Positions 51,569-52,578 of a stretch of DNA of 64,000 nucleotides are shown here, in pieces; within the stretch, counting starts at the first letter, position 1; each line of letters opens with the position of its first letter. The notes under the pieces are model-generated. The model was not told the DNA's origin, ran no database searches, and worked only from the letters and a program-made list of their open reading frames with translations. Source of the stretch: Escherichia coli (lineage in GTDB: Bacteria; Pseudomonadota; Gammaproteobacteria; Enterobacterales; Enterobacteriaceae); the NCBI RefSeq assembly GCF_003334765.1, contig NZ_QOWT01000009.1. One strand, written 5' to 3'. The position numbers and the translations under genes were made by a program.

Positions 51569-51979
51569 AAGAAAACATCCCCTGAGAGTTTAATTTTCGT
51601 CAAGATGCGTGGCGGACAATCCCCTGCCAGCGAAACGTTATCTTCCTGCTCCAGGTTTGCGACAATTTGCTGCGTCGCAAAAAAGCAAACGTTTAGCTCC
51701 GCGCATACAAAACGGGTGGTAAAAAAAGCAAACGATTATCCGGCGATCATAGCGGCTTTTTCAACCGAAGTTTGCTGCTTTTTTCTCTTTTATTGTCTTG
51801 ACGATGAAAAACCAGGCAATTGATGCGCAAACGTTATCGTCGGTGCGCAAGATTGCAGCGTTATCGAGCCGTATACCGTTCAGGATTGCGATAAAAAATC
51901 GTCTGAGATGACAAAAATATTGCGGTTAAAAAGTATACTTTTACACTGGCGAAGAAACGTCGGTGACATACAATTAAAG

Positions 51980-52122
51980 CATCAACACCAACCGGAACCT
52001 CCACCACGTGCTCGAATGAGGTGTGTTGACGTCGGGGGAAACCCTCCTGTGTACCAGCGGGATAGAGAGAAAGACAAAGACCGGAAAACAAACTAAAGCG
52101 CCCTTGTGGCGCTTTAGTTTTG
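51980..52122 (+). ncRNA. ryjA: Probable small RNA RyjA/SraL, convergent with and overlapping the 3' end of soxR
   Basis: About 140 nt between a tacaat-like -10 element (about 51968..51973) and the bidirectional hairpin aaactaaagcgcc-cttg-tggcgctttagttt; location between soxR and yjcD matches the reported position of this sRNA; boundaries approximate. Confidence 0.45.
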
Positions 52123-52578
52123 TTCATCTTCCAGCAAGCGTGCGCCGGTACCTTCTTCTCCTAAGCGGTCGCCCGGGTTACGCAACGGGCAATCACTGCG
52201 CGAAAGGCAGCCACAACCAATACATCCGTCCAGTTCGTCACGCAGCGCCACTAAGGTATGAATGCGCCGATCCAACTCTTCTCGCCATTGGGACGAAAGC
52301 TGTTTCCACTCTTTCGCACTTAACGTATGCCCTTCGGGCAACACGCCAAACGCTTCACCAATGGTCGCCAGCGGAATGCCAATACGCTGAGCAATTTTGA
52401 TAATTGCAACATATCGCAACACATCACGTTTATATCGCCGCTGATTGCCGCTGTTACGGATACTGGTAATCAACCCTTTACTTTCATAGAAATGCAGCGC
52501 CGATACCGCCACACCGCTGCGTTTCGCCACTTCGCCGGGGGTTAGCAGCGCTTTAATGCGGGGTAATTTCTTTTCCAT
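52114..52578 (-). CDS. soxR: Redox-sensing MerR-family regulator SoxR
   Basis: ORF track 154 aa; [2Fe-2S] motif [12 protein letters not shown]. Confidence 0.96.

Follow-up and report, generated by a model that had tools for sequence, protein, structure and literature searches.

The window analysed here is a stretch of 64,000 nucleotides of Escherichia coli DNA, and the region of interest is the spacer between ghxP and soxR. Both genes lie on the minus strand, soxS follows beyond soxR on the plus strand, and the other genes at the locus are yjcE and pdeC. An earlier reading of the letters alone (the sequence-only reading) had given the spacer a length of 545 bp, which is exact: positions 51569..52113 make up the 545 bp between the ATG of ghxP and the stop codon of soxR. 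The genes, and the features on the soxR side of the spacer, are as follows.

50219..51568, minus strand: ghxP (yjcD) coding sequence, guanine/hypoxanthine permease, ATG at 51568
51858..51945, no strand: junction where E. coli is without a glutathione S-transferase (GST) gene of ~690 nt, placed by the end of similarity and by tblastn
51946..51974, plus strand: sraL promoter, with a -35-like CTGGCG (51946..51951), a 17-nt spacer and a -10 TACAAT (51969..51974), then TAAAG and the start A51981
51981..52121, plus strand: sraL / ryjA small RNA gene, 141 nt, by Rfam RF01408 and identity to b4459
52087..52124, both strands: shared terminator hairpin, with a perfect 13-bp stem (52090-52102 / 52108-52120), a 5-nt loop, and A-rich and T-rich flanks
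52114..52578, minus strand: soxR coding sequence, stop codon TAA at 52114..52116
52664..52987, plus strand: soxS

The 756 bases around the small RNA were 100% identical to those of K-12-type and other strains, and were found in 5421 of 5426 complete E. coli genomes. Comparison with MG1655 over a 6-kb stretch gave two substitutions and one 1-nt deletion, every one of them outside the ghxP-soxR spacer. Since there are so few differences in 6 kb, the window is from a very close relative of MG1655, and not from MG1655 itself. The differing positions are 49114, 50134 and 51449, with one substitution in yjcE, one in ghxP, and the deletion in the yjcE-ghxP spacer. Elsewhere in the window, eight matches to Rfam naRNA4 (CssrE) at 4304..4580, 7056..7136, 33954..34137 and 44673..44743 are REP/BIME-type repeat clusters, the first of which holds three tandem copies 100 nt apart. 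An Rfam SECIS_2 selenocysteine insertion element was also matched on the plus strand at 31431..31485 (87 bits), presumably inside a formate dehydrogenase gene.

The covariance model of Rfam RF01408 (sraL) matched 51981..52121 on the plus strand with 153.3 bits (E = 1.1e-34). The curated gathering threshold of this family is 39 bits; coverage of the full model was taken as the criterion, and the match ran over model positions 1-142 of 142. The ncRNA ryjA (b4459; NC_000913.3, 4277926..4278066, minus strand) maps onto the same interval of the window, 51981..52121 on the plus strand, with 141 of 141 bases identical. A small RNA ryjA/sraL had been proposed between soxR and yjcD, and the full-length match together with this base-for-base identity confirmed it. 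With E allowed up to 1, sraL was still the sole Rfam family matched in the spacer. One further match to the sraL model, on the minus strand at 52090..52125 (23.7 bits), was rejected as the mirror image of the palindrome. We estimate a probability of about 95% that 51981..52121 (+) is the gene for SraL (RyjA), the known ~140-nt enterobacterial sRNA, with the promoter, the terminator and the action in trans described here.

SraL is already known: the annotation of the reference genome includes it, Rfam has a family for it, and two of its targets have been validated in Salmonella. PGAP annotation of sraL was absent from the E. coli RefSeq records examined, MG1655 excepted, and this may be the reason why the gene seemed unannotated. 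The RNA of ~140 nt was found in E. coli in 2001 and is induced in stationary phase (PMC3753932). The 5' nucleotide of E. coli RyjA is an A, and RyjA has been probed on northern blots, with ryjA put under the sibD promoter (PMC12956327). RyjA is also polyadenylated in E. coli and, being strongly stabilised, increased by 3.8 log2 in a pcnB mutant (PMC5389530); turnover of SraL would be initiated by this polyadenylation. The case shows that a real sRNA, its promoter and its terminator could be recovered by a reader from raw sequence.

A plausible -10 element had been placed about 140 nt upstream of the terminator, and TACAAT at 51969..51974 agrees with this, lying 147-152 nt before the 3' end (52121) and 7 nt before the 5' end (51981). 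The -10 region, ATA.A.T.A.AG, was invariant in five genera, and the downstream TAAAG was also kept. A generic sigma-70 scan did not list the sraL promoter, because its -35, CTGGCG, matches the consensus at only three of six positions. With its good TACAAT -10, its degenerate -35 and, just 3' of the -10, an A/T-rich TAA, the promoter has the pattern that the stationary-phase sigma factor RpoS uses, and transcription of sraL would start at A51981. In Salmonella, SraL is an sRNA encoded between soxR and the next gene, it was nearly absent in an rpoS mutant, and RpoS was detected at its promoter by ChIP (PMC3753932). The poor -35 and good -10 seen in the window fit the RpoS-type promoter of that study, as judged from the promoter sequence.

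The conservation of SraL was followed in loci from a reference-genome scan with a strict core pattern, which returned four: Escherichia sp. ESNIH1, Citrobacter sedlakii, an Enterobacteriaceae MAG and a Leclercia MAG. These four loci are enough for synteny and too few for a real covariation test. Full-length sraL was present in all four (126-149 bits), and across the sampled genera the sRNA sequence was 83% conserved per column, with long invariant blocks. Both the single-sequence fold and the five-genera consensus fold had the architecture of the Rfam family, namely a 5' helix, two small hairpins and a Rho-independent terminator. Within the five sequences, the terminator was invariant and the pairing of the 5' helix was kept through two compensatory changes (A-U to G-C). 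Folding of the RNA had been suggested as a check on the earlier reading; the Rfam architecture was reproduced, whereas the RNA as a whole folded only modestly better than shuffled sequences (minimum free energy -45 kcal/mol, z = -1.99).

In three of the four loci the order of genes was soxS, soxR, the convergent sraL, a GST gene, ghxP and yjcE. The same arrangement is found in Salmonella, where sraL lies between soxR and STM4267. A GST gene of the STM4267 type was located between sraL and ghxP in Salmonella, Citrobacter, Leclercia and two other Enterobacteriaceae, and tblastn with the GST protein found it in all four scanned loci (L003-L006). The same search found no GST gene or remnant in the window. 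The similarity of the ghxP-proximal spacer to other genera stops ~282-289 nt into the spacer (about 51850..51857). These comparisons indicate that E. coli has lost the GST gene that elsewhere separates sraL from ghxP, and that the junction would be the scar of this loss.

The neighbour on the other side of sraL also varies. In C. sedlakii (L004, 698..1742), soxRS was absent beside sraL, and a gene for a LysR-type regulator was convergent on sraL instead. The end of this gene, AAC TAA, occupies the same position in the stem as the end of E. coli soxR. In the other three loci the stop codon of soxR falls immediately beyond the stem, within the U-run and at sraL nt 139-142 (computed for L003 and L005, and read by hand for L006). 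Since the partner gene changes in C. sedlakii while sraL stays, the sRNA and its hairpin appear from these alignments to be a stable unit, with whichever gene is convergent using the hairpin as its terminator.

The hairpin had been described as a strong palindrome at 52089..52124, and these limits held within 1-2 nt. Two tools found the perfect 13-bp inverted repeat at 52090-52102 / 52108-52120, which with one bulge reaches 52087..52124. As had been stated, the terminator overlaps the stop codon of soxR: the TAA (minus strand) is in the right arm of the stem. The 3' end of the sRNA is likewise antisense to soxR, covering 8 nt of its coding sequence. The folding energies of the hairpin were -20.5 (plus strand) and -22.2 kcal/mol (minus strand), with z of about -5.9 on each strand, and none of 200 shuffled sequences was as good. 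On the plus strand it is followed by the U-tract UUUAGUUUUGUU (9 U of 12), and on the minus strand the GC core is followed by UUUAGUUUGUUUU (10 U of 13). A strict terminator scan listed the plus strand only; the minus-strand terminator was absent from it because U residues were counted solely after the fully extended stem.

Transcription of sraL would end at this GC-cored 13-bp hairpin and its U-run (52090..52124), and on the other strand the same palindrome would be the intrinsic terminator of the convergent soxR. The proposal of a bidirectional terminator is thus upheld as far as sequence can tell, and two-way termination at the sraL/soxR hairpin is credible, since neither strand folds less well than the other and each has a U-rich tail. 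In E. coli, intrinsic terminators that work in both directions between convergent genes were reportedly described by Ju, Li and Liu in 2019. For SraL, the overlap of its terminator with that of soxR has been noted, with RNase III possibly cutting there (Viegas et al. 2007, PMC2190706).

A natural variant of this arrangement was observed in E. coli MS1050 (L010, 1156..1309). Here a 154-nt GC-rich palindromic insert, which looks like a boxC-type repeat, lies between the sraL hairpin and soxR and brings a second copy of 24 nt from the loop and right arm. This insert leaves soxR without an intact hairpin directly after its stop codon, and MS1050 is therefore a natural test of the shared-terminator idea.

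SraL would act in trans by base-pairing, and what is known of its targets comes from Salmonella. There, SraL represses tig by pairing upstream of the Shine-Dalgarno sequence, as proven by compensatory mutations (PMC3753932); its 5' region on the tig 5' UTR would lower the level of trigger factor. SraL also pairs with the rho leader and prevents premature Rho-dependent termination, probably by occluding the rut site (PMC6582626, PMC12360218). [quoted passage not shown] The Rfam family name includes 'Hfq binding', which is not well supported, because Hfq co-immunoprecipitation in Salmonella gave 0 reads for sraL at the phase sampled. Both the dependence on RpoS and the targets tig and rho were established in Salmonella, and we infer that E. 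coli has the same targets. Duplex energies of E. coli SraL with tig (-160..+30) and with the rho leader were no better than with shuffled targets, in a simple whole-length calculation that pairs the RNAs end to end and so has no bearing on the published pairings. A 7-bp Watson-Crick match between CGGAACC of SraL and GGUUCCG of tig at about -75 was dropped, being expected by chance at this search size.

A different possibility is that SraL acts in cis on soxR, besides or instead of its action in trans. When RpoS induces sraL, an RNase III-cleaved duplex or a head-on collision of polymerases would lower SoxR, and the shared hairpin would be more than a space-saving terminator. The geometry allows for this, as the two transcripts share ~35-40 complementary nt (about 52085..52124), the soxR stop codon included. 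A longer SraL species was also seen in an RNase III mutant, and cleavage was proposed in the terminator that overlaps that of soxR (PMC2190706). Collision at bidirectional terminators is described for E. coli in a preprint (bioRxiv 10.1101/2022.10.23.513370). The overlap, however, is wholly part of a hairpin of high stability in either RNA by itself (-20 to -22 kcal/mol), which disfavours pairing between the RNAs, and sraL covers only 8 coding nt of soxR in E. coli and 0-2 in three other genera. Moreover, sraL is unchanged beside the unrelated LysR-type partner in C. sedlakii, which argues that the sRNA is not tied to soxR, and no effect of SraL on soxR was reported in the literature examined. 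We regard action in cis as improbable, and a cis role of the RpoS-driven sraL through collision or RNase III, which the comparative data disfavour, as speculation at long odds. If true, the superoxide sensor would have its set-point tied to stationary phase.

The trans-acting SraL accounts for one end of the spacer, and the remaining 412 bp are made up of the sraL promoter, PurR operators around a conserved predicted ghxP promoter, and the gene-loss scar. The features on the ghxP side are as follows.

51629..51644: weaker PurR-like box, from the position weight matrix (PWM)
51683..51698, minus strand: second PurR-type box, AGCTAAACGTTTGCTT, at about +30 to +45 from the predicted ghxP start; 19.2 bits by PWM, the best in the window
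51726..51741, minus strand: weaker PurR-like box, GGATAATCGTTTGCTT, which overlaps the -10 predicted for ghxP; eighth in the window with 11.7 bits
51735..51764, minus strand: predicted ghxP promoter, with -35 TTGAAA (51764..51759), an 18-nt spacer and -10 GATAAT (51740..51735)
51825..51840, minus strand: PurR operator, ACGATAACGTTTGCGC, upstream of the predicted ghxP promoter; 18.4 bits by PWM, the second best in the window, with a core invariant in five genera

The ghxP promoter was found by a consensus scan with 10 of 12 matches, and both hexamers were invariant in five genera. Its predicted start at ~51728 would give a leader of ~160 nt. The earlier description of the spacer as a long ghxP leader thus applies to the ~160 nt below the predicted promoter (about 51728 to 51569); it does not apply to the rest, which consists of the PurR operators, the gene-loss scar, and sraL with its promoter.

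The PWM for PurR was built from 27 other PurR ChIP-chip sites, and ~128,000 positions were scored in the 64-kb window. The two strong boxes of the spacer ranked first and second; both match the 16-bp palindrome ACGNAAACGTTTGCNT, and the next best site (12.7 bits) is outside the spacer. In the second box, TAAACGTTTGC was invariant in five genera. The box over the predicted -10 was also invariant in five genera, its 11.7 bits being just under the weakest training site (12.2 bits). Binding of PurR here is documented: the ChIP-chip region 'ryjA/yjcD' contains a 16-mer identical to the box at 51840..51825, with a log2 ratio of 2.08 with adenine (Cho et al. 2011, PMC3159470). The published table gives only one motif for this region, and the second box (51683..51698) is not in it. 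Repression of ghxP has been reported to depend on adenine and PurR. From the sequence, ghxP may be under two equally strong candidate PurR operators flanking its predicted promoter, together with a conserved hairpin in the leader, and this may be a small novel point.

This hairpin, UUGCGAC...GUCGCAA at about 51655..51680 on the minus strand, keeps its pairing in five genera through a change of GCGAC/GUCGC to GUGGC/GCCAC; the five sequences, two of which are near-identical, give little power for covariation. The PurR-like boxes that flank it (boxes C and D) could pair with each other in the RNA. In E. coli TUM2820 (L009, 1873..2853), an IS5-like element of the ISKpn26 family was observed in the ghxP control region, with its breakpoint at ~51693, inside the second PurR box.

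Could the spacer instead be mainly a long structured leader of ghxP, a riboswitch or attenuator that senses purines as RNA? The ~285 nt beside ghxP are 75-81% conserved across genera, the hairpin is maintained in all five of them, and two PurR-like boxes are able to pair in RNA. Against this, the conserved blocks coincide with the PurR boxes and the promoter hexamers, no Rfam family was found in the ghxP leader at E up to 1, and the predicted leader folded no better than shuffled sequences (z = 0.05). The small covariation sample weighs little in favour of an RNA element, and PurR occupancy and adenine repression are documented. A purine-sensing leader is thus very unlikely, and the conservation beside ghxP is better read as operators and promoter, with SraL as the RNA gene of the spacer.

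The SraL transcript could also be a small mRNA, since 26 codons can be read from an ATG at sraL nt 35 (52015) to the TAA 52094..52096. The frame is present in E. coli as the tail of a 62-aa ORF (51908..52096), but the ATG is replaced by GCG or CTG in three of five genera, indels shift the frame, there is no evident ribosome-binding site, and in the consensus structure this region is base-paired. With a start codon that varies and a frame interrupted by indels, a coding role of SraL is unlikely, and we give the small-mRNA reading hardly any weight.

The notion that there is no independent RNA gene, and that what is conserved is the 3' terminator of soxR together with DNA bound by proteins in the control region of ghxP, draws on the facts that the hairpin alone would be kept as a soxR terminator and that PurR binds within the spacer, but it is effectively refuted because detection of the ~140-nt transcript has already been published, repeatedly, and it is further opposed by the covariance model covering all 142 positions and not the terminator only, by the compensatory changes in the 5' helix, by the conservation of the sRNA in genera with a GST gene between it and ghxP and in the absence of soxR, and by the position of the PurR boxes outside 51981..52121.

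With SraL as a known sRNA, the additions made here are small: the linkage of sraL and its hairpin despite the change of partner gene, the apparent loss of the GST gene in E. coli, and the second conserved PurR box at ghxP.

Compared with known systems, ghxP resembles purF, purB, purR and xanP, which are repressed by PurR through operators at or downstream of the promoter, in having palindromes of the ACGNAAACGTTTGCNT type, ChIP-chip occupancy and repression by adenine. It differs from them in having two boxes of equal strength on either side of the predicted promoter, 142 bp from each other, with a weaker box over the -10. The hairpin between sraL and soxR resembles the bidirectional terminators of E. 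coli (bioRxiv 10.1101/2022.10.23.513370; reportedly also Ju, Li and Liu 2019), being a single palindrome with a GC core, an A-run on one side and a T-run on the other, between convergent units. It differs from them in that one partner here is a 141-nt sRNA and the hairpin overlaps the stop codon of the other. Among sRNAs, SdsR (RyeB) is like SraL a stationary-phase, RpoS-transcribed, trans-acting and conserved core enterobacterial sRNA (PMC3753932), whereas its sequence, locus and targets are unrelated. The closest system is SraL/RyjA itself (RF01408; b4459 in E. coli; sraL between soxR and STM4267 in Salmonella), with which the window shares sequence, length, boundaries, strand, the convergent soxR neighbour, promoter features and terminator, and the RNA encoded here does not differ from it. 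The differences are in the surroundings: compared with Salmonella and the other sampled genera, E. coli is without the GST gene on the promoter side of sraL, and its soxR stop codon is inside the stem, whereas it is in the U-run in Salmonella and the other sampled genera, with the LysR-type gene taking the place of soxR in C. sedlakii.
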